Source: Acidimicrobiales bacterium
GTDB taxonomy: Bacteria > Actinomycetota > Acidimicrobiia > Acidimicrobiales > GCA-2861595
Length of the DNA: 64,000 nt
Assembly: GCA_046596195.1 (NCBI GenBank)
Contig: JBKJNA010000233.1
Span: forward strand, 638 to 64,637
Reading direction: 5' to 3'
Part shown: positions 1,985-51,457 of the stretch, piece by piece
Layout of the letters: each line of letters opens with the position of its first letter
Numbering within the stretch: the first letter of the stretch is position 1
The notes under the pieces: generated by a model
What the model was told of the DNA's origin: nothing
Seen by the model: only the letters and a program-made list of their open reading frames with translations
The model's database searches: none
Translations under genes and position numbers: made by a program

Positions 1985-3412
1985 ATGGCGCGGCGCTACG
2001 ACCTGGTGATCATCGGCATGGGGTCGGGCGGGATGGTGGCGGCCGAGTTCGCGGCCAAGCTGAAGCTGAAGGTGGCGGTGGTCGAGCGGGGGCGGGTGGG
2101 CGGTGACTGCCTGTGGACGGGATGCGTGCCGTCGAAGGCGCTGCTGGCGTCGGCCAAGGTGGCCCACCACCTGCGGACGGCCGACCGGTGGGGGTTACCG
2201 GCCACCGATCCCGCCATCGACACGGCGGCGGTATGGAGGCGCATCCGGGCCGTCCAGCACGACATCGCCGCCACCGACGACAACCCCGATCGCTTCCGGG
2301 CCCTGGGCGTGGAACTGGTCACCGGCACGGCCCGCGTCAGTGGGCCCCACAGGGTCGAGGTGGGCGGGCGAACGCTGCAGACCCGCTACGTCCTGCTCTG
2401 CACGGGCAGCAGGCCGGCTACGCCCCCCATCCCCGGGCTGGTCGAGGCCCGGTACCTCACCAGCGAGAACGTGTTCGAGATCGACAAGGCGCCGGCCCGG
2501 ATCGTCGCCATCGGCGGCGGTCCCATCGCCATCGAGCTGGCCCAGGGCCTCAACAGACTCGGCGTGAAGGTCACCGTCCTCCAGAAGGGACCCGGCATCC
2601 TGCCCCGCGACGAGCCCGAGCTGGTGGCCATCCTCACCCGGCGGCTGCGGGCGGAGGGCGTCGACGTGCGCCTTGACGTCGACATCGAGCGGGTGGCCGT
2701 CACCGACGACGGCGCCAAGGTGGTGCACGGCACCCAGGCCGGCGAGCCCACGTCGTGGGAGGCCGACGAGCTGCTCGTGGGCGTGGGCCGGCGGCCCAAC
2801 GTCGAAGGGCTGGGGCTGGAGGACGTCGGCGTCGAGATCGGGCAACGGGGTGTGAAGGTCGACGACCGCATGCGCTCGACCGTGCCGTCGATCTATGCGG
2901 CCGGCGACGTGGCCGGGCGGTTCCTGTTCACCCATTCGGCCGGCCACGAGGCGGTGCGGGCTGTCCGCGACATGTTCTTTCCCGGCCGAGGCACCGTGAG
3001 CGACCTGGTGCCGTGGTGCACGTTCACCGACCCGGAGCTGGCCCACGCCGGGCTCACCGAGGGCGAGGCCAGGAAGGTCCACGGGGAGGTGCAGGTCCAC
3101 CGGATGGACCTGTCCCACTCGGACCGGGCCAGGGCCGACGGCGACGTCGAGGGCCGCATCGTGGCCGTGTGCGGCCCCAAGGGACGCCTGGTGGGCGCCG
3201 GCATCCTGGCCGCCGGCGCCGGCGAGATGATCCACGAGCTGGCCCTGCTCATCAAGGACGGGCGGCCCCTTACCGACCTTTCCAGCCTCATCCACGTGTA
3301 CCCGACACGGTCCACGTCGATAGGGCAACTGGCGGCCGAGGCCACCTTCGCCTCCGCCCTGCGCCTCGTCTGGGTCACCCGCCTCACCCGGCTGTGGCCG
3401 TTCGGGCGGTGA
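1985..3412 (+). CDS. class I pyridine nucleotide-disulfide oxidoreductase (dihydrolipoyl dehydrogenase / mercuric reductase-like)
   Basis: ATG at 1985 is in frame with ORF 1625..3412. N-terminus MARRYDLVIIGMGSGGM (FAD GxGxxG), redox-active GGDCLWTGCVPSK, and a C-terminal dimerisation region HVYPTRS. The upstream part of the tracked ORF is Arg/Pro/Gly junk. Confidence 0.85.
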   Translation: MARRYDLVIIGMGSGGMVAAEFAAKLKLKVAVVERGRVGGDCLWTGCVPSKALLASAKVAHHLRTADRWGLPATDPAIDTAAVWRRIRAVQHDIAATDDNPDRFRALGVELVTGTARVSGPHRVEVGGRTLQTRYVLLCTGSRPATPPIPGLVEARYLTSENVFEIDKAPARIVAIGGGPIAIELAQGLNRLGVKVTVLQKGPGILPRDEPELVAILTRRLRAEGVDVRLDVDIERVAVTDDGAKVVHGTQAGEPTSWEADELLVGVGRRPNVEGLGLEDVGVEIGQRGVKVDDRMRSTVPSIYAAGDVAGRFLFTHSAGHEAVRAVRDMFFPGRGTVSDLVPWCTFTDPELAHAGLTEGEARKVHGEVQVHRMDLSHSDRARADGDVEGRIVAVCGPKGRLVGAGILAAGAGEMIHELALLIKDGRPLTDLSSLIHVYPTRSTSIGQLAAEATFASALRLVWVTRLTRLWPFGR

Positions 3413-3467
3413 ACATCCCCCGCTGGCGTCGGCTCCGGCGGGGCGGCTGGCCGGTACGCTCGACCCG

Positions 3468-4235
3468 ATGGCCCCCCTCGTGATGGGCGTGCTCAACGTG
3501 ACCCCTGATTCGTTCTCCGACGGCGGGCGGTTCGTCGACCCCCGGCGGGCGGTGACCCACGGCCTCGCATTGGCCGCCGAAGGGGCGGACGTGGTCGACG
3601 TGGGCGGCGAATCCACCCGTCCCGGAGCGGCGCCGGTCGACGAGGCCGAGGAACTGCGCCGGGTGGTCCCGGTGGTGGAGGCGCTGGCACCCCACGTGCG
3701 GGTGTCGATCGACACCACCAAGGCGGGGGTTGCGGCCGCCGCCCTGGAGGCGGGCGCCACCCTGGTGAACGACGTTTCCGCATCGCTGCACGACGTGGCG
3801 GCGGCTGCGGGCGCCGGCTGGGTGGCCATGCACCGCCAGGGCGACCCCCGGTCCATGCAGGTGGCACCTGCCTACGACGACGTGGTGGCCGAGGTGGTCA
3901 ACTTTCTCGCCGAGCGGGCGGAGGCGGCCCGGCAGGCCGGCGTCTCCGAGATCTGGATCGATCCCGGCATCGGCTTCGGCAAGCTGGCCCGTCACAACCT
4001 CCTGCTGCTGCGCCATCTCGACGTGTTGGTCGCCACCGGCCTCCCGGTCGTGGTGGGCAGCAGCCGCAAGTCGTTCCTGGGCGCCCTCGCCGGCGGCACA
4101 GCACCCCACGACCGCCTGGAGGGCTCCCTGGCCACCGCCGTGGTGGCCATGGCCAAGGGCGCCCGGATGGTGCGGGTGCACGACGTGGCCGCCACCGTGC
4201 AGGCCGCCCGCCTGGTGGGGGACGTGGCGGCATGA
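3468..4235 (+). CDS. folP: dihydropteroate synthase
   Basis: 255 aa with MGVLNVTPDSFSDGG, DVGGESTRPGA and GFGK motifs. Confidence 0.95.
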   Translation: MAPLVMGVLNVTPDSFSDGGRFVDPRRAVTHGLALAAEGADVVDVGGESTRPGAAPVDEAEELRRVVPVVEALAPHVRVSIDTTKAGVAAAALEAGATLVNDVSASLHDVAAAAGAGWVAMHRQGDPRSMQVAPAYDDVVAEVVNFLAERAEAARQAGVSEIWIDPGIGFGKLARHNLLLLRHLDVLVATGLPVVVGSSRKSFLGALAGGTAPHDRLEGSLATAVVAMAKGARMVRVHDVAATVQAARLVGDVAA

Positions 4236-4726
4236 GAGGCAAGTGGGCGGCCGGCCTGGCCCCCCGCAACTTCACCTGGATCATCAAGGACTCCCTCGCC
4301 GTGAGCGAGCGGCCGGGGGGCTACGCCCGCAACCACCGCCGGGTCCGCCGCCAGGAGGAGATCATCTGGCTGCGGGAGCAGGGCTTCAGCCGGATCGTCT
4401 CGCTGCTGGGTTCGCCCCACAACCTGCACGCCTACGACGAGTTGGGCGTCACCTGGTCGCACATCCCGTTCAGCACACTCGACGAGCCCCGCACCGTCCT
4501 GCCCGAGCTCTACGGCCGGCTCCAGGGATGGCTGGCGGCGGGCGAGAAGGTCCTCGTCCACCAGGAGGACCTGGGCGACCGCCTCATGGGCGTGATGGCC
4601 GGGTATCTGCTCGTCACCAAGATGATCGAGACAGGGCCCCAGGCCATCGCCGTGGTGGAGCGCATCGTGGCCCGCCAGATGGGGCCCGACGGCCGCCAGC
4701 TGGTCGCCCTCGCCCCCACGCTCTAG
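4232..4726 (+). CDS. dual-specificity/PTP-fold protein lacking the catalytic cysteine (hypothetical)
   Basis: 164 aa. The P-loop position reads VLVHQEDLGDRLMG where HCxxGxxR is expected (Cys replaced by Gln). The start overlaps the folP stop (ATGA) and the stop abuts the folB ATG. Confidence 0.6.
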   Translation: MRGKWAAGLAPRNFTWIIKDSLAVSERPGGYARNHRRVRRQEEIIWLREQGFSRIVSLLGSPHNLHAYDELGVTWSHIPFSTLDEPRTVLPELYGRLQGWLAAGEKVLVHQEDLGDRLMGVMAGYLLVTKMIETGPQAIAVVERIVARQMGPDGRQLVALAPTL

Positions 4727-5107
4727 ATGGCGCCAGTGCCCGCGGGCGACGTGATCGAGCTGCGGGGCCTTCGGGCACTCGGCCGCCACGGGTGCCTCCC
4801 CGAGGAGAAGGAGCGGGACCAGCCCTTCGAGGTCGACCTCGACATCCACCTCGACCTGTCCGTCGCCGGGCGGTCGGACGACCTGGGCGACACGCTGGAC
4901 TACGGCGAAATTGCCGTCGCAGCTGCGGGCATGGTCGCCGGCCCGCCCGCCCATCTGCTCGAGCGGGTGGCCGAGCGCATCGCCGACCGTGTCCTGGCCG
5001 ACGCCCGGGTGACGGCCGTCACCGTCGCCGTGCGCAAGCTGCGCCCGCCCGTGCCGGTCGACCTGGCCACCGCCGGCGTGCGCATCACCCGGCACCGCCC
5101 GGCCTAG
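4727..5107 (+). CDS. folB: dihydroneopterin aldolase
   Basis: 126 aa; LRGLRALGRHGCLPEEKERDQPFEVDLDI is typical FolB. Operon position fits. Confidence 0.9.
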   Translation: MAPVPAGDVIELRGLRALGRHGCLPEEKERDQPFEVDLDIHLDLSVAGRSDDLGDTLDYGEIAVAAAGMVAGPPAHLLERVAERIADRVLADARVTAVTVAVRKLRPPVPVDLATAGVRITRHRPA

Positions 5108-5120
5108 CGGCGGCGGCGAC

Positions 5121-5567
5121 ATGCGGGCCTTCGTCGCCCTCGGCTCCAACCTGGGCGACCGCCGGGCCCACCTGCGCGCCGCGGTGGAAGGTCTTCCCGG
5201 CGTTGTCGCCGTGTCCGGCGTCTACGAGACCGACCCGGTCGGCGGCCCCGGCGGGCAGCCGCCCTACCTGAACGCCGTGGTCGAGCTGGAGACCGATCTG
5301 TCGCCGAGGGCGCTGCTCGACATCGGCCGGCGCCTGGAGGAGGCGGCCGGCCGGGTGCGGGCTGGGCGGTGGGGGCCCCGTACGCTCGACGTCGACATCC
5401 TGCTGGTGGGCGACCTCTCGGTGGACGAGCCCGACCTCACCGTGCCGCATCCGCGCCTGCGTGAGCGGGCGTTCGTGCTCGTCCCCCTCCACGATGTGGC
5501 GCCCCATCTGGCGGGCCTTCGCCCTGCCGACGGGTCGGTCCGGCCCGCCGGCCGGCTGGAGTCGTAG
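5121..5567 (+). CDS. folK: 2-amino-4-hydroxy-6-hydroxymethyldihydropteridine diphosphokinase
   Basis: 148 aa with AFVALGSNLGD, RWGPRTLDVDILL and PHPRLRERAFVLVPL motifs. Confidence 0.92.
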   Translation: MRAFVALGSNLGDRRAHLRAAVEGLPGVVAVSGVYETDPVGGPGGQPPYLNAVVELETDLSPRALLDIGRRLEEAAGRVRAGRWGPRTLDVDILLVGDLSVDEPDLTVPHPRLRERAFVLVPLHDVAPHLAGLRPADGSVRPAGRLES

Positions 5568-5622
5568 GAGCAAACGCGCCCGTTTCGGTGGTGGTTTCAG
5601 CTGCCCTGCCGATAAGACGCCT

Positions 5623-7510
5623 GTGGGCTTCCTCGGATGCACCGAACCGGAGCGCAAGCGGCTGCCCGATCCGGTGGCAGCGCCGGTCGGCACCGTGGCG
5701 GCTGCGGACGGGGTCGACGAGCGGCGGGCGCTGCGCCTGGCCAACCACCGCCTCCGACTGGCCCTCGACGCGGCGGACGACGCCTTCGTCGGCATGGACG
5801 CCGCCGGCTGCATCACGGAGTGGAACCGGACGGCGGAGGCGATGTTCGGCTGGCGGGTCGAGGAGGTGGCCGGCCGCGAACTGGCGGACACGATCGTTCC
5901 CGCCCGCCACCGGGAGGCACACCGGAAGGGCTTGTCCCGGTACCACGAGGCAGACCACGCTGCTCGGCCAGCGTGTCGAGATCACCGCCGTAGACCGCGA
6001 CGGGCGTGAGTTCCCTGTCGAGGTCGCCGTCCGGGCGGTCGACGGCGGCCCCGACGGCAGCAGCTTCTTCGCCTACGTCCAGGACATCTCGGAGCGGCTG
6101 GCGCAGCGGGATGCACTGCGCGAGAGCGAGACGAGGCACCGCGTCCTGGCCGAGCAGCTTGTCGCCGCACAGCAGATCGCCGGGATCGGCAGCTGGGAAT
6201 GGGACGTGCCGGCCAATTCGGTGACCTGGTCTGAGGAGCTGTGCCGGATCTTCGGCGTCCGCCCGGGAAGCCAGCCGCGCACGTATGAGGACTACCTGGC
6301 CGCCGTGCACCCCGAGGACAGGCACGACACGGACGCCATGATCCGTCTCACCTACGCGGCCGGCAAGGCCTTCAGCTTCGACCATCGCGTCGTGCACCCG
6401 GACGGCACCGTGCGGAACATCCACTCGCGGGGCGACGTGACCATGGGGGACGACGGCATGGTGTTGCGCCTCGCCGGGACGGCGCAGGACGTGACCGACA
6501 GCGTCGCTGCGGCGATCGCCCTGCGCGACAGCGAGCGCGGCCTGGCCGAGGCCCAGCGGATCGCCCGGCTGGGGAGCTGGGAGTGGGACCCGGCGTCCGG
6601 CCGCGTGATCTGGTCCGCCCAGATGTGCAGCCTGCTGGCTCTGGACCCGGGGACCGCAGGGGTCGAGCCGGGGGACTTCGTCACCGCCCACCGGCGCTAT
6701 CTGGATGCGGTCCATCCGGAGGACCGGGCCGAGGCCGAGTCGGCCATCGGCACGGCCATCGAGACGCGCCAGGAGTACGCCTTCGACCACCGCCTGGTGG
6801 GGACGGACGGCGCCGTCACCTGGGTCCAAGGCCGCATCCGGGCCGAATTCGACGACGACGGCGTCCCGAGCCGGGTGCACGGGACGGCGGTGGACATCAC
6901 CGAGCGGGTCGCCCTCGAGCAGGAGTTGACGGCCCTCGCGCTGTTCGACGACCTCACCGGTCTCCACAACCGCCGAGGCTTCGTCACCCTGGCCGACCAC
7001 CACCTCGCCCTGGCCATGCGTACCGGCCGGCCGGTTCCCCTGCTGTTCGTCGACATGGACGGCATGAAGACCATCAACGACACGTACGGCCACAACGAGG
7101 GGGACCGGGCGCTGGTGGATGTGGCGTCGTTCCTGCGGGCCGCCCTGCGCGCCTCGGACCTGGTGGCCCGTGTCGGTGGTGACGAATTCTGCATCCTCAT
7201 GGTCGACGACGGCTCGGGGTCCGCCACCGACGTCGAGCGGGTGGCGGAAGGCCTCCGCGCCGGCCCGCCCCGGGGCGGTCGGGCCTACCCACTGACCCTG
7301 AGCGTGGGTATAGCCGGGCTCGAGCCGAGATCGATGTGGTGCGTCGCACGAGATCGACCGCATGGACTGGTTCGTGGCCGGCGTGGAGGGCGACGTGCCG
7401 GCGCGGTAGCCCGACGGCCGGGCCGGCGAGCCGGGGGCGGTACCATCGGTTCCACGGACGGCACCCCGGAAGGGGGCCGGAACGGAAGGGCCCGGCTCTG
7501 CGCGACATGA
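5623..7510 (+). pseudogene. PAS-PAS-PAS-GGDEF diguanylate cyclase, frameshifted as sequenced (about nt 5950)
   Basis: The first PAS domain starts in frame 1 (FVGMDAAGCITEWNRTAEAMFGW...HRKGLSRYHE) and continues in frame 2 (TTLLGQRVEITAVDRDGREFPVEV). Two more PAS domains follow (GSWEWD repeats), then a GGDEF domain with an RASD I-site and VGGDEF. The start (GTG 5623) and the 3' end (7510 vs about 7409) are uncertain. Confidence 0.8.
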
Positions 7511-8331: not shown

Positions 8332-8689
8332 GACGGCAGATGCTGAAGTCCAAGATCCACCGGGCCACCGTCACCGATGCCAACGTCGACTACGTGGGGT
8401 CCGTCACCATCGACGCCGGCCTGCTGCGGCGGGCCGACATCCGCGAGCACGAGCAGGTGCACGTGGTCGATGTGGACAACGGCGCCCGCCTCGTCACCTA
8501 CGCCATCGCCGGCGGGGCGGGGGAGCTGTGCCTCAACGGGCCGCCGCCCGCCTCGTCGAACCCGGTCATCGGGTGATCGTGATCAGCTATGCCGAGTACG
8601 ACGAGGCCGAGCTCGACGCCCACCAGCCGATCGTCGTCCACGTCGACGCCTCCAACAAACCCATCGCCCCGGCCGCCGCCGGCCGGTAG
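8328..8689 (+). pseudogene. panD: aspartate 1-decarboxylase, frameshifted as sequenced (about nt 8539)
   Basis: (V)[28 protein letters not shown]...ELCLNG is in frame 3. The rest ([35 protein letters not shown]) is in frame 2 and ends at TAG 8687-8689. The shift sits at a G-run (aacggg/gcc). Confidence 0.9.
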
Positions 8690-11210: not shown

Positions 11211-11982
11211 TGCTGCTCACCATCGACACCGGCAACACCCAGACGGTCCTCGGCCTGTTCGACGGCGCCGAACTGGTGTCGAGCTGGCGCATCGCCACCA
11301 ATGCCGAGCGGACCTCCGACGAGCACGCCCTGGTGGTGAACCAGCTGCTCGACCTGGAGGGCTACCCGCCCGACGACGTCGTCACCGGCATCGCCATCGC
11401 CTCCACCGTCCCCGCCCTCACCGCCACCCTTCGCGCCATGACGGCCCGCTGGTTCGACGTGCCCACCGTCGTGCTGGAGCCGGGCGTGAAGTCCGGGGCA
11501 GCCATCCTGGCAGACAACCCCAAGGAGGTCGGCGCCGACCGGGTGGCCAACACGGTCGCCGTGCACACCCTTTTCGGCGGGCCGGCGGTGGTGGTCGACT
11601 TCGGCACGTCCACCAACTTCGACGCCGTGTCGGCCAAGGGCGAGTACCTGGGCGGCGCCATCGTCCCCGGCATCGAGATCAGCCTCGACGCCCTGTTCGG
11701 GCGGGCCGCCGCCCTGCGCCGGGTTGAGCTGGTGAGCCCCGCAACGTCATCGGCAAGACCACGGTGGAGTGCATCCAGTCGGGCGCCCTCTACGGCTACA
11801 CCGACCTGGTGGACGGCATGTGCCGGCGCATGCGGGCCGAGCTGGGCGGGGCCACGGTGGTGGCCACCGGCGGGCTGAGTGGACTCATCAGCCCCCTGTC
11901 CGACACGATCGACCACCACGAGCCCTGGCTGACCCTGCACGGGCTGCGGCTCGTCTTCGAGCGCAACACGACCGAGAAGTAG
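11210..11982 (+). pseudogene. coaX: type III pantothenate kinase, frameshifted as sequenced (about nt 11740)
   Basis: MLLTIDTGNTQTVLGLF...VVDFGTSTNFDAVS...LRRVELVSP is in frame 2. The continuation RNVIGKTTVECIQSGALYGYTDLVDG...TGGL is in frame 1. The shift sits at a C-run (agcccc/gcaac). The ATG overlaps the nadC stop (TGATG). Confidence 0.9.
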
Positions 11983-27865: not shown

Positions 27866-27939
27866 AGCCCGAGGCCGGATTCGAACCGGCGACCTGACGC
27901 TTACAAGGCGCCTGCTCTGGCCAACTGAGCTACTCGGGC
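27866..27939 (-). tRNA. tRNA-Thr (anticodon UGU)
   Basis: The reverse complement folds as GCCCGAG-UA-GCUC-AGUUGGCCA-GAGC-A-GGCGC-CUUGUAA-GCGUC-AGGUC-GCCGG-UUCGAAU-CCGGC-CUCGGGC-U (74 nt, no encoded CCA). Confidence 0.93.
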
Positions 27940-29845: not shown

Positions 29846-30625
29846 GTGGACGAGCTGTTCGCAGCATTCAGGAGCGAGCCGGGAACCGCAGGCATCCTCA
29901 GCGACTTCGACGGGACCCTCGCCCCGATCGTCGACGACCCGGATGCCTCCAGACCCCTGCCCGAAGCCGTCGACCTGCTCCACCGTCTGGCCACCACCTA
30001 CCGGCGGGTCGCCGTCATCTCGGGCAGGCCCGCCTCCTTCCTGTCCACCCACCTCCGACTGGCCGAGGGCGACGGCCTGATGGCCATCGGTCTCTACGGC
30101 CTGGAGACGGCCGACGGCGACCAGGTCACCGTCGACCCCCGCGTGCTTTCGTGGCTGCCCGTCGTCGACGAGGTGGCGTGCCTGGCCGAGGAGCAGGCCA
30201 CCGCCGGTGTGTACGTGGAACGCAAGGGCCTGTCGGTCACGCTGCACTACCGCACCACGCCGTCAGCCGCCGCCTGGGTGACGAAGTGGGCGGCCGCGCA
30301 GGCCGGGCGCACCGGGCTCATCCGCCACCCGGCCCGCATGTCGGAGGAGCTGCGGCCGCCGCTGCCGGTGGACAAGGGCACCGTCGTGGCCCAGCTGGCC
30401 GAAGGGCTCCGGCGGGTCTGCTTCGTGGGCGACGACGTGGGCGACCTGCCGGCGTTCGCCGCCCTCGACGCCCTGGCGTCCTCGGGCGCCGTCACCACCG
30501 TGAAGGTCGGCGTGCGCAGCGAGGAGGCGCCGCCGGAGCTGCTGGCCGGCGCCGATCTGGTGGTGGACGGCCCGGGTGGGGTCGTCGACCTCCTCAGTCG
30601 CCTGCTCGCCCCGACGCCGGCGTAG
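29846..30625 (+). CDS. otsB: trehalose-phosphatase
   Basis: HAD motif ILSDFDGTLAPIV, plus VAVISGR and GDDVGD. GTG 29846 is in frame with tracked ORF 29699... Confidence 0.85.
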   Translation: MDELFAAFRSEPGTAGILSDFDGTLAPIVDDPDASRPLPEAVDLLHRLATTYRRVAVISGRPASFLSTHLRLAEGDGLMAIGLYGLETADGDQVTVDPRVLSWLPVVDEVACLAEEQATAGVYVERKGLSVTLHYRTTPSAAAWVTKWAAAQAGRTGLIRHPARMSEELRPPLPVDKGTVVAQLAEGLRRVCFVGDDVGDLPAFAALDALASSGAVTTVKVGVRSEEAPPELLAGADLVVDGPGGVVDLLSRLLAPTPA

Positions 30626-31991
30626 CGACCGCCAGCTGGTCGTCGAGCCAGTCCTGGGGCGTGCGCCGGGTGGCCGCCTTGCGCAGGATGGCGGCCCGGG
30701 CGGCCCGCTCCTCGGCCGGCATGGAGAGCGCCTCGGACAGGGCGGCCGCCGTGCCCGAGATGTCGAAGGGGTTCAGGCCCAGGGCCCCGTGGGCCAGCAC
30801 GTCCCAGGCGCCCGCCTCCCTGCTCAGGGCCAGGACACCGTCGCGCTCGTTCAGCACGGGGCCTTCGAGGGCGACCAGGTTCATGCCGTCGCGCACCGGG
30901 TTCACCAGGAGCACGTCGTAGCGGCGCAGCGCCGCCACCGAGCGGGGGAACGAGTCGCTCATGTCGAGCAGCACCGGGGTCCATGACGGTGTCGACCAGG
31001 TGGTGTTGAGCCGTTCGACGAACGCCTCGACCTCGGCCCGGTAGGCCAGGTACTCGGGCAGGCCGTCCCTCGACGGGTACACCGAGGCGGCGAACACGAC
31101 CCGCTCGCGCCAGTGTGGCTCCTCCTCGAGCAGGGCCTCGAAGGCGAGGAAGCCCCGCAGCAGGTTCTTGGAGAGCTCGATGCGGTCGACCCGCACGATG
31201 AGGTGGCGGTCGCCCACCCGCTCCTCGAGGCGCTGCAACTCGGCGGTCGACTCGGGCGACGCCGCCACCACGGCCAGCTCGGTGGCGTCGATGGCGGCGG
31301 GCGACACGAACGTCGCCGGCGTGCGGCCGAGCACGGCCCGGGCGCACCCCTCGAAGGCGTGCGACCAACGCTCGGAGTGGAACCCGCTGGCGCCGTGGCC
31401 GGCCATGGCCGCAAGGAGCTCGGTTGCGACTGCGTCGGGCAGCACCCGTAAGGTCGACGGCTCGCAGAACGGCGTGTGGTGGAAGTACCCGGTGCGCAGG
31501 TCGGGCCGCAGTCTTGCCACCGCCGCGCCCACCAGGGGCAGCTGGTAGTCGTGCACGAGCACGGTGCCGCCCTCGGGCGCTTCGGCGGCGACGGCGGCCG
31601 CGAACGCGTGGTTCACGTCACGGAAGGTGGCCCATGCCTCGTGCCAGCGCCTGTCGATGCGGGGGCGCCGGGGCAGGTCGTAGAGGTCGTGGTTGAGGAA
31701 CCAGAGGGTGGCGTTGGCGATGACGTCGTAGAACTGGCGGTAGGCGGCCGGGTCGATGGCCAGCGAGCACAGGCGGAAGCCCTCGGCCTCCACCGGCCCC
31801 TTGGCCGCTGCCAGCCGGTCGGCTTCTGTGATGGCGGCAGCGACCCACGTGGCGCCCGTGCCGGCGACCGCCGGACCGAGGCTGGACACCAGGCCGCCGG
31901 CCCCCCGCCGGGTCACCAACTCGCCGTCCGCACCGGTGCTGAAGGACAGCGGACCACGGTTCGAAACGACGACCAGGTCGGGGTGCCCCAT
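30594..31991 (-). CDS. otsA: alpha,alpha-trehalose-phosphate synthase (GT20)
   Basis: MGHPDLVVVSNRGPLSF..., HDYQL, HTPF and NPVRDGMNLVA motifs. The upstream 148 codons of the tracked ORF are Arg/Pro junk. Confidence 0.92.
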   Translation of the reverse strand: MGHPDLVVVSNRGPLSFSTGADGELVTRRGAGGLVSSLGPAVAGTGATWVAAAITEADRLAAAKGPVEAEGFRLCSLAIDPAAYRQFYDVIANATLWFLNHDLYDLPRRPRIDRRWHEAWATFRDVNHAFAAAVAAEAPEGGTVLVHDYQLPLVGAAVARLRPDLRTGYFHHTPFCEPSTLRVLPDAVATELLAAMAGHGASGFHSERWSHAFEGCARAVLGRTPATFVSPAAIDATELAVVAASPESTAELQRLEERVGDRHLIVRVDRIELSKNLLRGFLAFEALLEEEPHWRERVVFAASVYPSRDGLPEYLAYRAEVEAFVERLNTTWSTPSWTPVLLDMSDSFPRSVAALRRYDVLLVNPVRDGMNLVALEGPVLNERDGVLALSREAGAWDVLAHGALGLNPFDISGTAAALSEALSMPAEERAARAAILRKAATRRTPQDWLDDQLAVATPASGRAGD

Positions 31992-32011
31992 GCCGGTGCA
32001 ACGATACCCGT

Positions 32012-33028
32012 GTGCATCGTGTGGTCGCCGCCCCTGACAAGTTCCGTGGCACGGCGTCGGCGCGCCAGGTCGCAGCGGCCATAGCGGCAGCCGCCGCAGG
32101 CGCCGGCTGGGCGTGCGACGAGGCGCCCGTCGCGGACGGCGGCGAAGGCACCCTCGACGCCATCGGCGGAAGCGTGCGTACCTCCCGCGTGCGCGGCCCG
32201 CTGGGCGAGGCGGTGGAGGCGGAGTGGCGACTGCTGTCGTCCCCGCCGGAGACGATGGTCGGCAGCGGGCCCATGGCACTGGTCGAGATGGCCAGAGCAG
32301 CGGGGCTCGACCTGGCGGGCGGGCCCGAGTGGAACGACCCCATGCGGGCGTCCACCGAAGGCGTCGGCGACCTGATCCTGGCCGCCGTGGCGGCCAAGGC
32401 CCGGCGGGTGGTGGTGGCCGTCGGCGGCTCGGCATCCACCGACGGCGGGCTCGGCTGCCTCAACGCACTCCGGCCACGGGGCCGGCTGGCGGGCGTCGAC
32501 CTGGTGGTGGCGTGCGACGTCACCACGACCTTCGTCGACGCGGCCGCCGAGTTCGCTCCGCAGAAGGGTGCCACGCCGGCGCAGGTCGCCCTGCTCGGCC
32601 GCCGGCTGGAACGGCTGGCCCAGGTGTACCTCGACGAGTACGGCGTCGACGTGCGGTCCATCCCCGGCGCGGGCGCGGCCGGGGGCCTGGCCGGCGGGCT
32701 GGCCGCTGTGGGCGCCACCCTCCTTCCCGGGTTCGACTTCGTGGCCGACACCATCGAGCTGGCCGAACGCATCGAGGGCGCCGACCTGGTGGTGACCGGC
32801 GAGGGCTTCCTCGACGAGCACTCCTTCGACGGCAAGGCGGTCGGCGGCGTGGTCGAGCTGGCCGAGGAGGCAGGCGTGGCGGTCCTCGTTGTTGTGGGGG
32901 AGGCGTTCGATGCCGGCCCCGTGCCCGCCGTCTCGCTGGTGGAGCGCTTCGGCCGCACGCGCGCCTTCGAGGACACCCTCGCCTGCATCGAAGAGGCCGT
33001 GTCGGCGCACCTGCGGGCGTTAGCCTGA
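32012..33028 (+). CDS. glxK: glycerate kinase
   Basis: APDKFRGT, ADGGEGTLDA, GGSASTDGG, PQKGA, PGAGAAGG and DLVVTGEG motifs. Confidence 0.88.
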   Translation: MHRVVAAPDKFRGTASARQVAAAIAAAAAGAGWACDEAPVADGGEGTLDAIGGSVRTSRVRGPLGEAVEAEWRLLSSPPETMVGSGPMALVEMARAAGLDLAGGPEWNDPMRASTEGVGDLILAAVAAKARRVVVAVGGSASTDGGLGCLNALRPRGRLAGVDLVVACDVTTTFVDAAAEFAPQKGATPAQVALLGRRLERLAQVYLDEYGVDVRSIPGAGAAGGLAGGLAAVGATLLPGFDFVADTIELAERIEGADLVVTGEGFLDEHSFDGKAVGGVVELAEEAGVAVLVVVGEAFDAGPVPAVSLVERFGRTRAFEDTLACIEEAVSAHLRALA

Positions 33029-33032
33029 GGCG

Positions 33033-34277
33033 GTGACCGGCCCAGGAGGACGGACCAGAGTGGACTCACCGGTGACCGAGGGGGTCCGACGGGCGGGCCA
33101 GGTGTCGTGGGCGGCGGTGGGCGTGGCCACGCTGCTGGCCGTCGCCGGGATCGTGCTGTGGACCGTGCGGGTGATTTTCCCGCCCCTGATCCTGGCCGGT
33201 GCCATCGTCTTCCTCCTCAACCCGGTGGTGACGGGCCTCCAGCGCCGGGGCGTGCCGCGGGCTGCCGGCGCCGGCATCGCCTACCTCGGCGTCATCGGGC
33301 TCGTGGTGCTCGCCGGCGCTCTGATCTACCCCATCGCCGCCGACCAGGCGCGCGATCTGGGCGACGACTGGCCCGAGATCAAGATGAAGGCCGAGAACTG
33401 GCTCGACGATGCGGCCGACACGTCGCAGGGCACCTTCATCGAGTTCACCCGCGCCGACCTCGAGGACGCCTTCGGCAACGACAACACGACCTTCCGCCAG
33501 CAGCTCGACCAGGCGCGCGACCTCGGACTGAAGATCTTCCACGTCCTGCTGATCCTCCTGCTGGCGCCGATCATCGCCTTCTACCTGCTGGTGGACGCGC
33601 CCCGTGTCCGGGAGGTCATGCGGTCCCTCGTACCGCCGGGGGCGCAGTCCGAGGTCGACCACGTGGCGCACCGGCTCAACCGCGCCATAGGCGGGTTCTT
33701 CCGCGGGCAGCTTCTGGTGGCCACCATCGTCGGCGTCATGTGCTCCATCGGCCTGCTCGTCATCGGCCTGCGCTTCTGGTTCCTCGTCGGGATGATCGCC
33801 GGGCTCTTCAACATTGTCCCCCTCATCGGCCCGTGGGTCGGCGGCGTGCCCGGCATCATCATCGCCCTCACCACCGGCACACCGCTCCAGGCCGTCGGCG
33901 TGATCGTGGTGATGGTGACGGCCCAGCAGATCGACAACCACTTCATCACGCCCCAGGTGATGCAGCGGGTGGTCCAACTCCACCCGGCCGCGGTGATCCT
34001 CGCCCTCCTCGCCGGCGGCTCACTGGGAGGCTTCTTCGGCCTCCTCCTCGCCGTGCCCCTCACCGCCGTGCTGAAGATCATCTGCGGCCACGTCTGGCGG
34101 ACCCACATCCTCGACGAACCCTTCGAGCAAGCCGTTGCGGACGAGGAAGGCCCCGGGGCAATCTCCTACGCCGTGCGCAAGCCGCCGGATGAGGACGAGG
34201 CAAGCGAAGCCAACTCCGCCACACAAGGACCGGCACCAGCCCGTGCCAGCACGGTCCGCAGGACAGACTCAGCCTGA
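33033..34277 (+). CDS. AI-2E family transporter (PerM-like)
   Basis: A multi-TM protein with the FNIVPLIGPWVGGVPGIIIAL core. The exact start is uncertain. The 3' end overlaps the gpgS 3' end, convergently. Confidence 0.85.
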   Translation: MTGPGGRTRVDSPVTEGVRRAGQVSWAAVGVATLLAVAGIVLWTVRVIFPPLILAGAIVFLLNPVVTGLQRRGVPRAAGAGIAYLGVIGLVVLAGALIYPIAADQARDLGDDWPEIKMKAENWLDDAADTSQGTFIEFTRADLEDAFGNDNTTFRQQLDQARDLGLKIFHVLLILLLAPIIAFYLLVDAPRVREVMRSLVPPGAQSEVDHVAHRLNRAIGGFFRGQLLVATIVGVMCSIGLLVIGLRFWFLVGMIAGLFNIVPLIGPWVGGVPGIIIALTTGTPLQAVGVIVVMVTAQQIDNHFITPQVMQRVVQLHPAAVILALLAGGSLGGFFGLLLAVPLTAVLKIICGHVWRTHILDEPFEQAVADEEGPGAISYAVRKPPDEDEASEANSATQGPAPARASTVRRTDSA

Positions 34278-35011
34278 GGACCGAGCTCGGCCAAGGGGCG
34301 GTTCCGGTGCACCCGGCGCCCCAGGTCCACCTGCACCATCGAACCCAGCCCGTACCGCCCGGCCACGTCCGCCAGCAGCGCGATGTCGACCCCGTAGCCC
34401 CGCACGAACGGCACCTGTTCGAGCACGTCCCGCCGGCCGGCGCACTCACCTGCCAGCGGCTGGGTGAAGCCGGCCAGCGCCGGCAGCAGCACGCGGAGGG
34501 CCGGCTTGGCCATCAGCTCCGTGACCCGCCCGCCCTCGCCGTCGCGGCCGTCGTAGGGCCGGGCGTAGAAGGCCTTCACGAAGGTGACGGTGGCGTCGGC
34601 CAGCAAAGGCCCGACCAGCCCCACCACGAAAGCGGTGGCGAACGAGCGCACGTCGGCGTCGCAGTACACGACGAGGTCCCCGTCCGACGCGGCGAGGCCG
34701 GCCTGCATGGCCTCGCCCTTACCGCCCCCTCCGCCCGGCACCACGCGGGCGCCGGCTGCCCGTGCCGCCGCCGCCGTGGCGTCCGTGGAGCCGTCGTCGA
34801 CAACCACGATCTCGTCCACCAGCCGGTGTTGCACGCACAGGCGTCGGTGCACGGCGGCCACGATGGGGCCGACCGTCGCCTCCTCGTCCCTCGCCGGGAG
34901 GCACACCGAAACCCGCCGGCCGCCCTTCACCGCCACCAGGGCGGCGGCGTCGAACGACGACCCGGGCACCGTCGCCGGGCCCCGGCCGGGGAGGGGAGGG
35001 ACGGTCGCCAC
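34166..35011 (-). CDS. gpgS: glucosyl-3-phosphoglycerate synthase (GT81/GT2-like)
   Basis: VSVCLPARDEEATVG, VVDDGSTD, GKGEAM, DADV, and GGRVTEL...VHRNRPL match mycobacterial GpgS as I remember it. GTG 35011 was chosen because the tracked start (35206) would overlap the riboswitch and the thrC-like start. Confidence 0.82.
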   Translation of the reverse strand: MATVPPLPGRGPATVPGSSFDAAALVAVKGGRRVSVCLPARDEEATVGPIVAAVHRRLCVQHRLVDEIVVVDDGSTDATAAAARAAGARVVPGGGGGKGEAMQAGLAASDGDLVVYCDADVRSFATAFVVGLVGPLLADATVTFVKAFYARPYDGRDGEGGRVTELMAKPALRVLLPALAGFTQPLAGECAGRRDVLEQVPFVRGYGVDIALLADVAGRYGLGSMVQVDLGRRVHRNRPLAELGPQAESVLRTVLARAGAGPCVAELASLASSSSGGLRTA

Positions 35012-35087: not shown

Positions 35088-35182
35088 CCGTCATCCAGAG
35101 CGGTCGAGGGACCGGGCCCAGCGACACCGCGGCAACCAGCGGGCTTCAGCCCATCAGGTGCCAATGCCCGGAACGATGAGGA
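35088..35182 (+). promoter_or_regulatory. SAM riboswitch (SAM-I clan; P4 very short, possibly SAM-I/IV-like)
   Basis: UCAUCCAGAGCGGUCGAGGGACCGGGCCCAGCGACACCGCGGCAACC...GGUGCCAAUGCC..GAUGA. P1 is UCAUC/GAUGA and P2 is GCGGU/ACCGC. The 3' P1 strand abuts SD GAGGAGG, which lies 8 nt upstream of GTG 35194. Confidence 0.75.
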
Positions 35183-35193
35183 GGAATCACGTC

Positions 35194-36450
35194 GTGCCGT
35201 CCCCACCTGGCCCCTACGTCACGGGCCTCACCTGCCGCGAGTGCGGCCGTCCGTACCCGGCCGAGGCCCTCCACGTGTGCGAGTACTGCTTCGGCCCGCT
35301 CGAGGTGGCCTACGACTACGAGGCCATCGCGTCGGTCACGAGCCGGGAGCGCATCGCCGCCGGTCCCACCAGCATGTGGCGCTACGCCGACCTACTGCCG
35401 GCCGAGTCCACCGATCCGGTGAGCCTGGGTGCCGGCTTCACGCCGCTCGTGCGGGCCGACCGCCTGGCCGCCGAGCTCGGTCTCGGTGAGCTGTGGGTGA
35501 AGAACGACACCCTCAACCCGACCGGGTCGTTCAAGGACCGGGTGGTGTCGGTCGCCCTCACCAAGGCGCGTGAGCTGGGCTTCAAGGTGGCAGCATGCGC
35601 CTCCACCGGCAACCTGGCCAACTCGGTCGCCGCCCATGCCGCCCACGCCGGCATGCAGTCGATCGTCTTCATCCCATCGGACCTGGAGGAGGCCAAGATC
35701 GTCACCACCGCCGTCTACGGCGGCCGGCTGGTGGCGGTCGAGGGCAACTACGACGACGTGAACCGCCTGTGCGCCGAGCTGGCCGGCGAGCACCCCACGT
35801 GGGCGTTCGTCAACGTCAACATCCGCACCTACTACGCCGAGGGCTCCAAGACGCTGGCATTCGAGGTGGCCGAGCAACTGGGGTGGCAGGCCCCCGACCA
35901 CGTGGTGGTGCCCATCGCCTCGGGCAGCCAGCTGGTCAAGGTCCACAAGGGCTTCAACGAGCTGCACAAGGTCGGGTTGCTCGACGAGGAGCCGCACGTA
36001 CGGGTGTCGGGCGCCCAGGCGGCCGGGTGCTCGCCGGTGGCCACCGCCTTCTTGGAGAAGAGCGACCTCATCCGGCCCCAGAAGCCGAAGACCATCGCCA
36101 AGTCGCTGGCCATCGGCAACCCGGCCGACGGCTGGTACGCCCTCGACGTCATCCGCTCCACCGGCGGCGGGGTGGGCTCGGTGACCGATGACGAGATCGT
36201 GGAGGGCATCCGCCTGCTGGCCCGCACCGAGGGGATCTTCGCCGAGACGGCCGGCGGTGTCACTATCGCCACGCTGGCCAAGCTGGCCGCCTCGGGCGTG
36301 GTGCGGCCCGACGAGCGGGTGGTGGCCTACGTCACCGGCCTCGGCCTCAAGACGATCGACGCCGTCAGCCCCCACGTCGGGCCGACCGTTACGATTCCGC
36401 CCAGCATGGAGGCGTTCGCGGCCTTCATGGAGACGGAGAACGGTCGATGA
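35194..36450 (+). CDS. threonine synthase-family PLP enzyme with N-terminal 4-Cys ribbon (candidate O-phosphohomoserine sulfhydrylase rather than ThrC)
   Basis: 418 aa with CRECG...CEYC, the PLP lysine motif NPTGSFKDR, and ASTGN. It lies downstream of a SAM riboswitch and is coupled (ATGA) to a CysO-like gene. Confidence 0.85.
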   Translation: MPSPPGPYVTGLTCRECGRPYPAEALHVCEYCFGPLEVAYDYEAIASVTSRERIAAGPTSMWRYADLLPAESTDPVSLGAGFTPLVRADRLAAELGLGELWVKNDTLNPTGSFKDRVVSVALTKARELGFKVAACASTGNLANSVAAHAAHAGMQSIVFIPSDLEEAKIVTTAVYGGRLVAVEGNYDDVNRLCAELAGEHPTWAFVNVNIRTYYAEGSKTLAFEVAEQLGWQAPDHVVVPIASGSQLVKVHKGFNELHKVGLLDEEPHVRVSGAQAAGCSPVATAFLEKSDLIRPQKPKTIAKSLAIGNPADGWYALDVIRSTGGGVGSVTDDEIVEGIRLLARTEGIFAETAGGVTIATLAKLAASGVVRPDERVVAYVTGLGLKTIDAVSPHVGPTVTIPPSMEAFAAFMETENGR

Positions 36451-36725
36451 GTGTGAACGTACGGATCCCCACCCAGTTGCGCACCCTCACCGGCGGCGCC
36501 GGCGACGTGAGCCTCGACGGGGCCACGGTGGGCGAGCTGCTCACCGCCCTCGACGTCGCCCACCCGGGCTTCGGCGAGCGGCTCTTCGACGACGACCGCA
36601 AGCTGCGCCGCTTCGTGAACGTGTTCGTGGCCGACGAGGACGTGCGCTTCCTCCAGGGCCTCGACACGCCTGTGTCGGCGGGGCAGACGGTGTCGATCGT
36701 GCCGGCGGTGGCGGGCGGCATCTGA
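36447..36725 (+). CDS. MoaD/ThiS-family sulfur carrier protein (CysO-like)
   Basis: 92 aa. MSVNVRIPTQLRTLTGG...RRFVNVFVADEDVRF...VSIVPAVAGGI parallels M. tuberculosis CysO as I remember it. GG is followed by one extra residue. Confidence 0.88.
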   Translation: MSVNVRIPTQLRTLTGGAGDVSLDGATVGELLTALDVAHPGFGERLFDDDRKLRRFVNVFVADEDVRFLQGLDTPVSAGQTVSIVPAVAGGI

Positions 36726-36776: not shown

Positions 36777-37247
36777 ATGGCCGAGGTGCTGATCGTCGAC
36801 GACGACGATGACATCCGGGCGATCCTGGCGTTCACGCTGGAGGACGCCGGGTTCGAGGTGCGGGAAGCGGCCGACGGCAACCAGGCGGTGGCCGCCCTGG
36901 AGGCGAAGGCCCCGGACTGCCTCGTCCTCGACGTGATGATGCCGGCCTTCGACGGGTTCGGGGTGCTGCGCACCCGGCGCCAGTCGAACCTGGCGCCCGA
37001 CGCGCGGGTCATCCTCCTCACCGCCCGGACGGCCGAGCGCGACTTCGTCCGTGGCTGGGAGCTCGGGGCCGACGAGTACCTCACCAAACCCTTCGACCCC
37101 GACGAGCTGGTGGTGACCGTGCTCAGGCTCCTCAAGAGTTCCGCCGCCCAGCTCCACGAGCGCCGGGAGTCGGAGCTGAAGAAGGCCGAGCTGCTCGACC
37201 GGCTCGAATCCGCCTTCAACCGGCCGAGGGCCACCCCGCTGTCCTAG
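36777..37247 (+). CDS. single-domain response regulator (receiver + short coiled tail)
   Basis: VLIVDDDDDIR, LVLDVMMPAFDG, LLTAR and DEYLTKPF motifs. No output domain and no adjacent kinase. Confidence 0.85.
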   Translation: MAEVLIVDDDDDIRAILAFTLEDAGFEVREAADGNQAVAALEAKAPDCLVLDVMMPAFDGFGVLRTRRQSNLAPDARVILLTARTAERDFVRGWELGADEYLTKPFDPDELVVTVLRLLKSSAAQLHERRESELKKAELLDRLESAFNRPRATPLS

Positions 37248-37321: not shown

Positions 37322-39030
<1,709 letters not shown>

Positions 39031-50324: not shown

Positions 50325-51221
50325 GTGGCAGGATGGGGTGTGATCGTGCCGCTGAACGAGGATGAGCTCGTGTCCTTCGCCGAACGACGTGCCGCCGTGG
50401 CGGGTGGCGCGTCCCTCGACTTGCTGCGCTCGCGGCTGCGCGAGCTGGCGCCGGTGGTCGTGGCCTTCAGCGGGGGGGCCGACTCCGCCTTCCTGGCGTG
50501 GGTGGCCAACGACACCCTGGGCGCCGCTGCCACTGCTGTCACCGCCGTGTCACCGTCGCTGGCCCCCGAGGAGGAGGCCGACTGCCGGGCCCTGGCCGAG
50601 GAGTGGGGCCTGCGGTGGACGCCTGTGCACACCGACGAGCTGGCCGACCCTGCCTACTCGGCCAACGACGGCCGGCGGTGCTACTGGTGCAAGACGGCCC
50701 TCCTCGACGCGCTGGCGCCATTCAGCGCCGGCGGCGCCACCGTGGTGCTCGGGGTGAACCTCGACGACCTGGGCGACCACAGACCGGGGCAGGAGGCGGC
50801 CGCCGAGCGGGGCGCCGCCTTTCCGCTCGTCGACGCCGGCTTCACCAAGGCCGACGTGCGGGCCGAGTCGTCCCGGCTGGGTCTGCGTACGTGGGACAAG
50901 CCGGCCGCCGCCTGCCTCGCCTCGCGGGTCCCGTACGGCACGCCCGTCACCCTCGGCGTCCTGTCGTCGGTTGCCTGCGCCGAGTCGGCCCTGCGGGCGC
51001 TCGGGTTCGGCCAGCTGCGGGTCCGCCATTACGGGGACCTGGCCCGCATCGAGCTCGAGGGTGACGACCTGTACCGGGCGGTCCACGAGCGGGAGGCGGT
51101 GGTCGCCGCGGTGCGGTCGGCGGGTTACGCCTATGTCACCCTCGACCTCGAGGGTTTCCGCTCCGGCAACCTCAACGGCGCCCTGGTCGGCAGCGGCACC
51201 ATCGGGGGAGGCGCACGATGA
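50325..51221 (+). CDS. PP-loop ATP-utilising sulfur transferase, LarE-like (TIGR00268-type)
   Basis: PP-loop VVAFSGGADSAF, CxxC in DGRRCYWCK, and ACLASRVPYG (the LarE Cys-loop context, from memory). Confidence 0.8.
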   Translation: MAGWGVIVPLNEDELVSFAERRAAVAGGASLDLLRSRLRELAPVVVAFSGGADSAFLAWVANDTLGAAATAVTAVSPSLAPEEEADCRALAEEWGLRWTPVHTDELADPAYSANDGRRCYWCKTALLDALAPFSAGGATVVLGVNLDDLGDHRPGQEAAAERGAAFPLVDAGFTKADVRAESSRLGLRTWDKPAAACLASRVPYGTPVTLGVLSSVACAESALRALGFGQLRVRHYGDLARIELEGDDLYRAVHEREAVVAAVRSAGYAYVTLDLEGFRSGNLNGALVGSGTIGGGAR

Positions 51222-51457
51222 GCAAGGCCAGGGTCAGGCTCACGTTCCCCGAGCACCTCATCACCGAGCCGGTCCTCGCCCGCATGATGCGCCGGTTCGA
51301 CGTGGAGCCGAACATCCGCCGGGCCAACGTCGAGGAGAAGTTCGGCTGGATCATGTGCGAGTTGGTCGGCGACGGCGAGCTGGTGGAGTCCGCCATCGCG
51401 TGGCTGCGGGACGAGGGCGTCGAGGTCGACCGCCTGGGCGACATCGTCGAGGGCTGA
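51218..51457 (+). CDS. stand-alone NIL domain protein
   Basis: 79 aa. RVRLTFPEHLITEPVLARMMRRFDVEPNIRRANV...GWIMCELVGD resembles the NIL domain found at the MetN C-terminus. ATGA overlap with the larE-like gene. Confidence 0.7.
   Translation: MSKARVRLTFPEHLITEPVLARMMRRFDVEPNIRRANVEEKFGWIMCELVGDGELVESAIAWLRDEGVEVDRLGDIVEG

Follow-up and report, generated by a model that had tools for sequence, protein, structure and literature searches.

A 64,000-nucleotide stretch of DNA from an Acidimicrobiales bacterium of the class Acidimicrobiia (GenBank assembly GCA_046596195.1, contig JBKJNA010000233.1, positions 638 to 64,637), here called the window, contains a riboswitch aptamer of the SAM-I family, named for its ligand S-adenosylmethionine (SAM), followed by the genes for an enzyme resembling threonine synthase (ThrC) and for a small sulfur carrier protein. 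Together they very probably form a two-gene operon for thiocarboxylate-dependent homocysteine synthesis of the MetM/MetO type, whose translation is predicted to be shut off by the riboswitch at high SAM. The riboswitch, enzyme and carrier arrangement is conserved over the whole class and beyond. Homocysteine synthesis had already been proposed in an initial annotation made from the sequence alone, and this predicted activity is supported by the aptamer, by the position of the enzyme outside the ThrC clade, by the similarity of the carrier to CysO, by synteny and by a comparison with Nonomuraea. The elements of the locus are as follows.

35088–35182, + strand: SAM-I riboswitch aptamer (RF00162) in a natural form lacking P4, from cmscan and 74 homologous leaders
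35194–36450, + strand: metM-like gene for a 418-residue pyridoxal phosphate (PLP) enzyme of the ThrC family, from PALP, TIGR00260 and NF006050
36447–36725, + strand: metO-like gene for a 92-residue sulfur carrier of the ThiS/MoaD/CysO type, from the ThiS profile and Protein Data Bank (PDB) matches
34166–35011, − strand: divergent glucosyl-3-phosphoglycerate synthase gene (gpgS), which bounds the leader (NF010496, 302 bits)

The pair most resembles a system known from Streptomyces albulus (Hasebe et al., 2024, Appl Environ Microbiol 90:e01247-24), so that the MetM/MetO pair named in the initial annotation is indeed a published one. As that work is summarised in PMC12172450 and in GapMind 2026, MetM converts O-phosphohomoserine to homocysteine in a reaction dependent on the thiocarboxylate of MetO. 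The parts of the pathway given in the GapMind 2026 summary are the carrier MetO, the ThrC-homologous synthase MetM, MoeZ as the ligase and Mec as the hydrolase; the mSystems account (PMC12172450) mentions that S. albulus metM is preceded by a SAM riboswitch. The two systems share the ThrC-homologous PLP enzyme, the Gly-Gly carrier, the upstream SAM riboswitch, helper proteins encoded outside the pair and the annotation as threonine synthase, and they differ in that the host of the window belongs to another class of Actinomycetota, the aptamer lacks P4 and the carrier ends in an additional Ile.

The conservation of the arrangement was assessed in 80 loci that encode relatives of the enzyme in GTDB species genomes (63% to 91% identity to the window enzyme), nearly all of them metagenome-assembled genomes of Acidimicrobiales or Acidimicrobiaceae. 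A SAM-I aptamer lies upstream of the enzyme gene in 78 of these 80 loci, the exceptions being L077 (Abditibacteriaceae) and L080 (Nitrospirota), and a carrier gene follows the enzyme gene in 78 of 80, immediately adjacent in nearly all. In the window, the start codon of the carrier gene (ATG 36447) overlaps the TGA stop of the enzyme gene (36448–36450) in an ATGA, and an overlap of stop and start codons is likewise seen in most of the 78 carrier-bearing loci.

The aptamer was identified with cmscan and Rfam 15, which place RF00162 at 35088–35182 of the forward strand. Its score of 59.6 bits exceeds the gathering threshold of 44.4, and the E-value is 2.7e-11 when computed over the window and 1.1e-13 when computed over the local region. 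Because the program reports the best member of a clan alone, SAM-I outscored SAM-IV and SAM-I/IV. Three homologous leaders reach 64.9 (L075), 77.2 (L082) and 68.7 bits (L084, from Nonomuraea). The core strings of the SAM-I clan that had been read at 35091–35179, as well as the pairing proposed for P1 and P2, are therefore borne out, the pairing both in the cmscan alignment and in an alignment of 74 homologous leaders. The structural elements are as follows.

35089–35095, + strand: 5' strand of P1 (C-G-UCAUC), paired with 35175–35181, with a G35090/G35180 mismatch
35100–35130, + strand: P2, composed of P2a (35100–35104 with 35126–35130) and P2b (35108–35110 with 35117–35119)
35112–35116, + strand: P2 loop CCGGG, 5' half of the pseudoknot, with CCCGG at 35167–35171 as its partner
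35131–35162, + strand: P3 hairpin (35131–35137 with 35157–35162), with its base formed by GGCA-A-CC and GG-UGCC
35163–35174, + strand: single-stranded linker from P3 to P1, AAUGCCCGGAAC, a fusion of J3/4 and J4/1 that holds the 3' half of the pseudoknot (35167–35171)
35175–35184, + strand: 3' strand of P1 (GAUGA) running into the Shine-Dalgarno sequence GGAGG (35180–35184), the putative translational platform

For the comparative analysis, the distal part of P3, which varies from 13 to 54 nt, was excised, and the 74 distinct leaders were aligned with MAFFT without a structure model. The SAM-I architecture pairs 93.4% of the cells of this alignment, compared with 32–47% when the 3' partners are slid by 1–3 columns, and neither the observed paired percentage nor the covariation score was reached by any of 500 shuffles. 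Changes on both sides are found at 9 pairs, among them three pairs of P2a, one of P2b, two of P3 and one of the pseudoknot. In the window, P1 comprises the pairs of 35091–35095 with 35175–35179 as well as C35089-G35181 (cmscan alignment); its inner four pairs are standard in all 74 leaders, three of them being invariant, and the fifth is standard in 71. P2a is 100% paired, with the changes on both sides falling in three of its five pairs, P2b is 99% paired, and the K-turn's conserved G-A dinucleotides are kept in the internal loop between them. Pairing reaches 98.3% in the pseudoknot helix, where one pair changes from G-C to A-U in six sequences. In P3, the basal pairs are conserved and two distal pairs covary, and the distal part folds into a hairpin in all relatives but one. 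The aptamer is thus a genuine, conserved SAM-I aptamer that lacks P4, and it is predicted to bind SAM.

Ten of the leaders carry GACAACC in place of GGCAACC, which places an uncompensated A-C mismatch at a P3 base pair that adjoins the ligand-binding core (columns 45 and 65 of alignment A1, corresponding to positions 35132 and 35161 of the window).

The four-way junction with a P4 helix, a trait of SAM-I, is replaced here by the short linker between P3 and P1. In the cmscan alignment, the 17 internal P4 positions of the model are reduced to 1 nt, and the linker measures 11 nt in 70 leaders and 12 nt, as in the window, in the other 8 of the 78 leaders examined, so that P4 is absent throughout the lineage and the form without P4 is uniform over the metM leaders. 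The initial annotation had counted only 6 nt at the place of P4 (CGGAAC, 35169–35174), which stands, and had considered a SAM-IV- or SAM-I/IV-like identity, which does not. These two families are members of the same clan with a comparable ligand-binding core and, like the window aptamer, carry no P4 within the junction. They have instead a substitute hairpin and a second pseudoknot placed 3' of P1. In the window, the Shine-Dalgarno sequence begins 1 nt and the start codon 15 nt past P1. SAM-I/IV variants moreover lack the P2 internal loop (PMC2864571), which the window aptamer has, and the Shine-Dalgarno sequence directly past P1 and the better score of SAM-I speak against both identities.

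Aptamers without P4 have been reported before. In the RF00162 alignment, some Actinomycetota have a very short P4 or none, and SAM aptamers without P4 still respond to SAM with reduced affinity (PMC12714719, Nat Commun 2025), which leaves the membership of the window aptamer in SAM-I standing. This group and the window aptamer have in common the core of P1, kinked P2 and P3, a pseudoknot that joins the P2 loop to J3/4, and a P4 that is either very short or absent; there is no material difference, and the window aptamer is an example of the group. A designation as a new riboswitch variant was rejected, as the form is already described for Actinomycetota (PMC12714719).

The 3' strand of P1 had been said to abut the Shine-Dalgarno sequence of the GTG start codon at 35194, and this is the case: GGAGG occupies 35180–35184, 9 nt before the GTG. 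The same geometry is widespread, as 63 of 78 leaders have GGAG immediately after P1 and another 9 have it within 6 nt, and no terminator-like element is seen after the aptamer in the window sequence. Six leaders (L046, L049, L052, L054, L060 and L072) have an additional hairpin, GAGCGG-N4-CCGCUC, past P1, with the Shine-Dalgarno sequence farther downstream. The 5' arm of this hairpin duplicates the GAGCGG of the aptamer, and its six bearers also carry the pseudoknot change of CAGG with CCUG, which suggests a different and more elaborate platform of competing helices on the shared aptamer.

The first gene of the unit encodes a protein with a PALP domain (Pfam, E = 2.4e-73), which, judged by its sequence, is a ThrC-family PLP protein and not a canonical ThrC. 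As the initial annotation had proposed, its 418 residues comprise a ThrC-like enzyme and an additional N-terminal ribbon with four cysteines. Two features of the coding sequence are of importance.

35233–35289, + strand: N-terminal 4-Cys zinc ribbon CxxC...CxxC (C14, C17, C29, C32), a NinF-type ribbon in Pfam, residues 13–37
35533–35535, + strand: codon of Lys114 in the motif SFKDR; Lys114 is invariant in 78 aligned sequences of the ThrC family

Lys114 is presumably the lysine that forms the Schiff base with PLP, by homology with other fold-type II PLP enzymes. Among solved structures, the window enzyme is most similar to the canonical ThrCs of Aquifex, Bacillus, Thermus and M. tuberculosis (E = 1e-55 to 1e-60), whose alignments start at its residues 58–63, because the N-terminal ribbon is missing in them. 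Canonical ThrCs (2zsj, 6cgq, 1uim, 2d1f) thus share with the window enzyme the fold-type II PLP family, the SFKDR lysine motif and the presumed substrate O-phosphohomoserine, and differ from it in about 60 additional N-terminal residues with the 4-Cys ribbon, which only the window enzyme has, as well as in gene context and regulation. The neighbours of the window gene, gpgS upstream and the carrier gene downstream, do not form a threonine operon.

The window enzyme is only 36–40% identical to five canonical ThrCs, whereas these are 55–64% identical to each other across phyla, and it is 52–92% identical to carrier-linked relatives from Acidimicrobiia, Streptosporangiales, Abditibacteriota and metagenomes (P0121, P0123). 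A comparison with characterised ThrCs, proposed in the initial annotation, accordingly gives a neighbour-joining tree in which carrier-linked enzymes and canonical ThrCs form separate clades, with the window enzyme outside the ThrC clade. The clade of the window comprises 73 enzymes, with the carrier gene alongside in nearly all, and 21 positions that are at least 95% fixed among them are invariant and different in the five ThrCs. Examples are the change of STGNT to STGNL, the replacement of R160 (Thermus numbering) by Tyr with an Arg three positions earlier, and the change of GNAGN to ASGSQ. We take the discriminating residues to lie in the substrate loop, the phosphate site and the PLP-phosphate loop, as in other fold-type II PLP enzymes.

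In databases, proteins of this kind carry the name of threonine synthase. A protein search returned at least 8000 candidates with E ≤ 1e-20, and the named ones among the 120 matches listed are all called 'threonine synthase'; MetM is also noted to be 'often misannotated' in this way (GapMind 2026). The window enzyme passes the NCBIfam cut-offs for the ThrC equivalogs, which explains the misannotation, and the mis-call as thrC had been anticipated in the initial annotation.

The second gene encodes the carrier, a 92-residue protein that matches the ThiS profile with E = 1.6e-15 and ends in AVAGGI (Gly90-Gly91-Ile92). Over its full length, it is similar to CysO of M. tuberculosis (3dwg_C, E = 3.2e-21), as had been noted for this ATGA-coupled protein with its terminal GG-Ile, and to a ThiS/MoaD-family protein of Amycolatopsis (A. 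orientalis; 4n6e_B, E about 3e-21). About 64 of 77 relatives of the carrier have a free GG C-terminus, and extensions are present in the closest relatives of the window and in a few scattered others: GGI in the window (36714–36722), GGLA in L001, GGC with 17 further residues in L002, GGAL in L003 and L079, GGSH in L048, GGAN in L053, GGT in L049, GGA in L052 and L060, GGC in L067 and GGK in L077. The terminal Ile had been taken to imply a JAMM/Mec-type peptidase encoded elsewhere; the residue is there, but it is a variable trait, most relatives having a free GG, and alone it makes a weak argument for a dedicated peptidase. It fits trimming by a JAMM protein, but no enzyme reserved for this purpose is required. 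As in the CysO/CysM/Mec system, a Mec-type hydrolase would in any case be needed for release of the product.

The CysO/CysM/Mec cysteine pathway of M. tuberculosis is another close system, with which the window pair shares the CysO-like carrier, the presumed attack of a thiocarboxylate on a PLP-bound intermediate, the acyl shift and the hydrolysis by a JAMM protein. The partner there is CysM, which acts on O-phosphoserine, whereas in the window it is ThrC-like, acts presumably on O-phosphohomoserine and is under the control of a SAM riboswitch; a JAMM (mec) gene adjoining the carrier gene, as in the M. tuberculosis type, is not found at the locus. The HcyS/HcyD/HcyF/MetY system of Wolinella succinogenes, which takes the sulfur of homocysteine from a carrier thiocarboxylate (Krishnamoorthy and Begley, 2011, as cited in PMC5764234), would have the same sulfur source, and there a C-terminal extension of the carrier is removed by a JAMM protease. 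Its condensing enzyme is MetY, an O-acetylhomoserine sulfhydrylase of fold type I and not a ThrC homologue, and the activated substrate differs.

An independent example is provided by Nonomuraea gerenzanensis, in which a SAM-I riboswitch (68.7 bits, with P4 present) is found at 11.81 Mb in front of an enzyme 55% identical to that of the window. The carrier that follows has 91 residues and ends in AVAGG, groEL comes next, and, as in the window, otsA and otsB are found upstream. At 2.50 Mb, the same replicon encodes a 352-residue ThrC with 64% identity to the M. tuberculosis enzyme, and the next gene has an N-terminal homoserine-kinase signature, PATSANLGPGFD. This canonical pair of thrC and thrB-like genes lies 9.3 Mb from the riboswitch-linked enzyme gene, which is therefore a paralogue coexisting with a housekeeping thrC. 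The replicon (NZ_LT559118.1, 11.85 Mb) is filed in PLSDB as 'plasmid I' with 10 annotated features and, carrying thrC, a thrB-like gene and groEL, behaves as a chromosome. In the same plasmid collection, no Streptomyces metM was found.

A different setting is seen in the Nitrospirota locus L080 (8212–12638), which has no riboswitch. Here, the gene order is a PALP enzyme of 307 residues, the size of CysM/CysK, a ThiF-type E1, the ThrC-like enzyme, the ThiS carrier, a NIL-domain protein and a second ThiF-type E1.

From these observations, the following course of events can be proposed. At high SAM, the aptamer would bind SAM, P1 would be stabilised and the first bases of the Shine-Dalgarno sequence would be paired, as the outer pairs of P1 reach G35181; the compact SAM-bound fold, about 12 nt from the start codon, would then prevent the initiation of ribosomes. 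At low SAM, both proteins would be produced. The Ile of the carrier would be trimmed, and its Gly-Gly end would be adenylated and then thiocarboxylated by a MoeZ/ThiF-type E1 encoded elsewhere. The enzyme would remove the phosphate from O-phosphohomoserine on PLP, and the carrier thiocarboxylate would attack C-gamma. After an S-to-N acyl shift, a JAMM/Mec-type hydrolase would free homocysteine and regenerate the carrier, and homocysteine would be methylated to methionine.

Several points weigh against this reading. The enzyme passes the ThrC equivalog cut-offs of NCBIfam with 307.1 bits against 167.1 (TIGR00260) and 309.3 against 303 (NF006050). A homologue from Microcystis that is 51.6% identical to MetM and encoded beside a metO-like gene acts in vitro as a threonine synthase/deaminase and has no clear MetM activity (PMC12172450), so that function is not uniform across the wider family and cannot be deduced from homology alone. 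The orthology of the window enzyme to S. albulus MetM is drawn through the Nonomuraea protein as a proxy, at 55% identity, and is accordingly a presumed one. The linkage to the carrier is not absolute, as L075 (64.9 bits) and L082 (77.2 bits) have a SAM-I riboswitch and a ThrC-like gene with no carrier gene nearby. A search of the whole 64-kb window found no mec, moeZ, canonical thrC, thrB, hom or metX/Y/B/E/H; a MoeZ-type activator and a Mec-type hydrolase would be encoded elsewhere in the genome. As to regulation, a translational OFF switch would be the most economical reading, one drawn from geometry only, and the minimum free energy of the leader is no better than that of shuffled sequences (z = 0.04), with a predicted fold that breaks the aptamer. 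This thermodynamic fold was discarded as uninformative, and the comparative analysis was used instead.

Three other explanations of the locus have to be considered. The first holds that the pair makes cysteine or another thiol, for instance from O-phosphoserine with the CysO-like carrier and in place of CysM, which could be reconciled with the riboswitch in that SAM riboswitches also control sulfur assimilation. The carrier resembles M. tuberculosis CysO about as closely as it does any other protein, and the ThrC-family cysteate synthase, to which the window enzyme is a weak match (TIGR03844, 78 bits), offers a precedent for O-phosphoserine as a substrate. This explanation is nevertheless very unlikely: the cysteate synthase score is far under the cut-off of 325, the characterised homologous system, as it is summarised in the accounts of Hasebe et al. 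(2024), makes homocysteine from O-phosphohomoserine, and the separate 307-residue PALP enzyme of the Nitrospirota locus suggests two distinct reactions.

According to the second, the enzyme is a genuine threonine synthase, the riboswitch keeps the two branches from O-phosphohomoserine, to threonine and to methionine, in balance, and the carrier is an unrelated passenger. The cut-offs of TIGR00260 and NF006050 that the enzyme passes, the annotation of the named homologues among the matches listed and the threonine synthase and deaminase activity of the cyanobacterial relative in vitro (PMC12172450) would speak for it. It is highly improbable in view of the position of the enzyme outside the tight clade of canonical ThrCs, of the 21 ThrC-invariant positions at which it differs, of the translational coupling of the carrier gene in most of 78 loci, of a gene context that lacks the thrC-thrB pairing of the canonical locus in Nonomuraea, and of the separate canonical thrC that Nonomuraea has. 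In plants, threonine synthase is activated by SAM, and a switch turned off at high SAM would follow the opposite logic, starving threonine synthesis amid plentiful methionine.

The third, a homocysteine synthase that uses free sulfide, with a carrier that supplies a different user, for example a PP-loop thiolation enzyme, or is merely co-regulated, would account for the two riboswitch-bearing loci without an adjacent carrier (L075 and L082) and for the LarE-type PP-loop sulfur transferase that is syntenic in the lineage, but the overlap of stop and start codons that most of the 78 loci show, the dependence of the published system on MetO thiocarboxylate (in the accounts cited above) and the ThiF-type E1 genes that flank the pair in Nitrospirota leave it scarcely credible.

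Beyond the pair itself, a census of neighbours aimed at JAMM or E1 genes shows that the conserved neighbours of metM in Acidimicrobiia are housekeeping genes, namely those for GpgS, GroEL, a HemQ-like protein, a LarE-like protein, NIL and a NUDIX protein. Genes for trehalose-phosphate phosphatase and synthase (otsB, otsA) upstream of the unit and groEL downstream are common to the window and Nonomuraea, which belong to two classes of Actinomycetota. The flanking context lies at the following positions.

29846–35011 and 37397–39030 of the window
2840–7037 and 10304–11917 of L084 (Nonomuraea)

The gpgS gene is immediately upstream in the window and in most Acidimicrobiia loci, where a neighbour census also finds its family, and was not identified in the Nonomuraea locus. 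Its start in the window is approximate, as the mechanical open reading frame (ORF) extends to 35206 and the NF010496 match opens at residue 83 of this frame.

Downstream of the carrier gene, at a distance of 51 nt and before groEL, the window has a gene for a response regulator of 156 residues (36777–37247, + strand), of which the receiver domain alone was matched. In most relatives, groEL occupies this slot after the carrier gene, and the response-regulator gene looks like a local insertion that may be co-transcribed with the carrier gene. The groEL of the window (37397–39030, + strand) is found in two overlapping ORFs of 449 (model positions 1–424) and 103 residues (442–537) and appears to be either an assembly-error frameshift or a pseudogene. 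Two further genes on the + strand look truncated: panD (8340–8576) encodes 78 residues against a model of 126 positions, and of a type III pantothenate kinase gene (11764–11982) the part called covers the C-terminal 72 residues alone. Together with the split groEL, they suggest indel errors in the assembly. The sole further Rfam match in the window is a tRNA gene (RF00005, 69 bits) at 27866–27939 of the − strand.

A separate lead concerns a small protein consisting of a NIL domain, which is known as the methionine-binding regulatory domain of MetN. The genes concerned are as follows.

50340–51221 of the window, + strand: LarE-type PP-loop sulfur transferase gene, preceding the NIL gene
51218–51457 of the window, + strand: gene for a 79-residue NIL-domain protein, translationally coupled to the LarE-type gene
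13419–13655 of L077, 11524–11733 of L080 and 3826–4062 of L081: NIL genes in relatives

In three unrelated lineages, represented by L077 (Abditibacteriaceae), L080 (Nitrospirota) and L081 (an unassigned metagenome contig), a NIL gene lies 23–88 nt past the metO-like carrier gene, and in L080 it lies between the carrier gene and a ThiF-type E1 gene. In Acidimicrobiia, 62 loci have enough sequence for the comparison, and 42 of them have the gene about 3.4 kb downstream of metM-metO; among 51 metagenomic NIL loci that extend far enough upstream, LarE is the gene immediately before NIL in 46. An alignment of NIL proteins across phyla was too divergent for scanning, and a narrower one mostly recovered the same lineage, so that the link across phyla stands on three loci. 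A NIL/ferredoxin partner of DUF39 is required in an unrelated homocysteine pathway of archaea and Desulfovibrio (PMC5764234), and no link of NIL to MetM/MetO was found in the literature searched. It is conceivable, if rather unlikely, that the stand-alone NIL protein is an unrecognised component, or a methionine-sensing regulator, of thiocarboxylate-dependent homocysteine synthesis. This link is the sole element of the present analysis that may be new.

The remainder is already known in its outlines, as the pathway and its control by a riboswitch were published in 2024, the form without P4 was noted in 2025 and the misannotation in GapMind 2026. What is added here is the near-universal occurrence of the arrangement in Acidimicrobiia, an aptamer that uniformly lacks P4, and a set of residues that separates the clade from ThrC. 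The value of these findings lies in annotation and metabolic reconstruction, and neither new biochemistry nor a new class of riboswitch is among them. For such genes, the SAM riboswitch serves as a handy functional flag, and the 21 discriminating residues could seed a profile that distinguishes MetM from ThrC. Since the NCBIfam cut-offs reproduce the mis-call, genome-scale models of Acidimicrobiia would contain a spurious second thrC and miss the homocysteine step. Acidimicrobium ferrooxidans is among the organisms for which no homocysteine pathway was known (Price et al., 2018, PMC5764234), and because the riboswitch-controlled pair is near-universal in 78 genomes of the Acidimicrobiia type, MetM/MetO is the obvious candidate for this gap. 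On the evidence of these related genomes, rather than of A. ferrooxidans itself, it is possible that MetM/MetO fills the homocysteine gap of this species.

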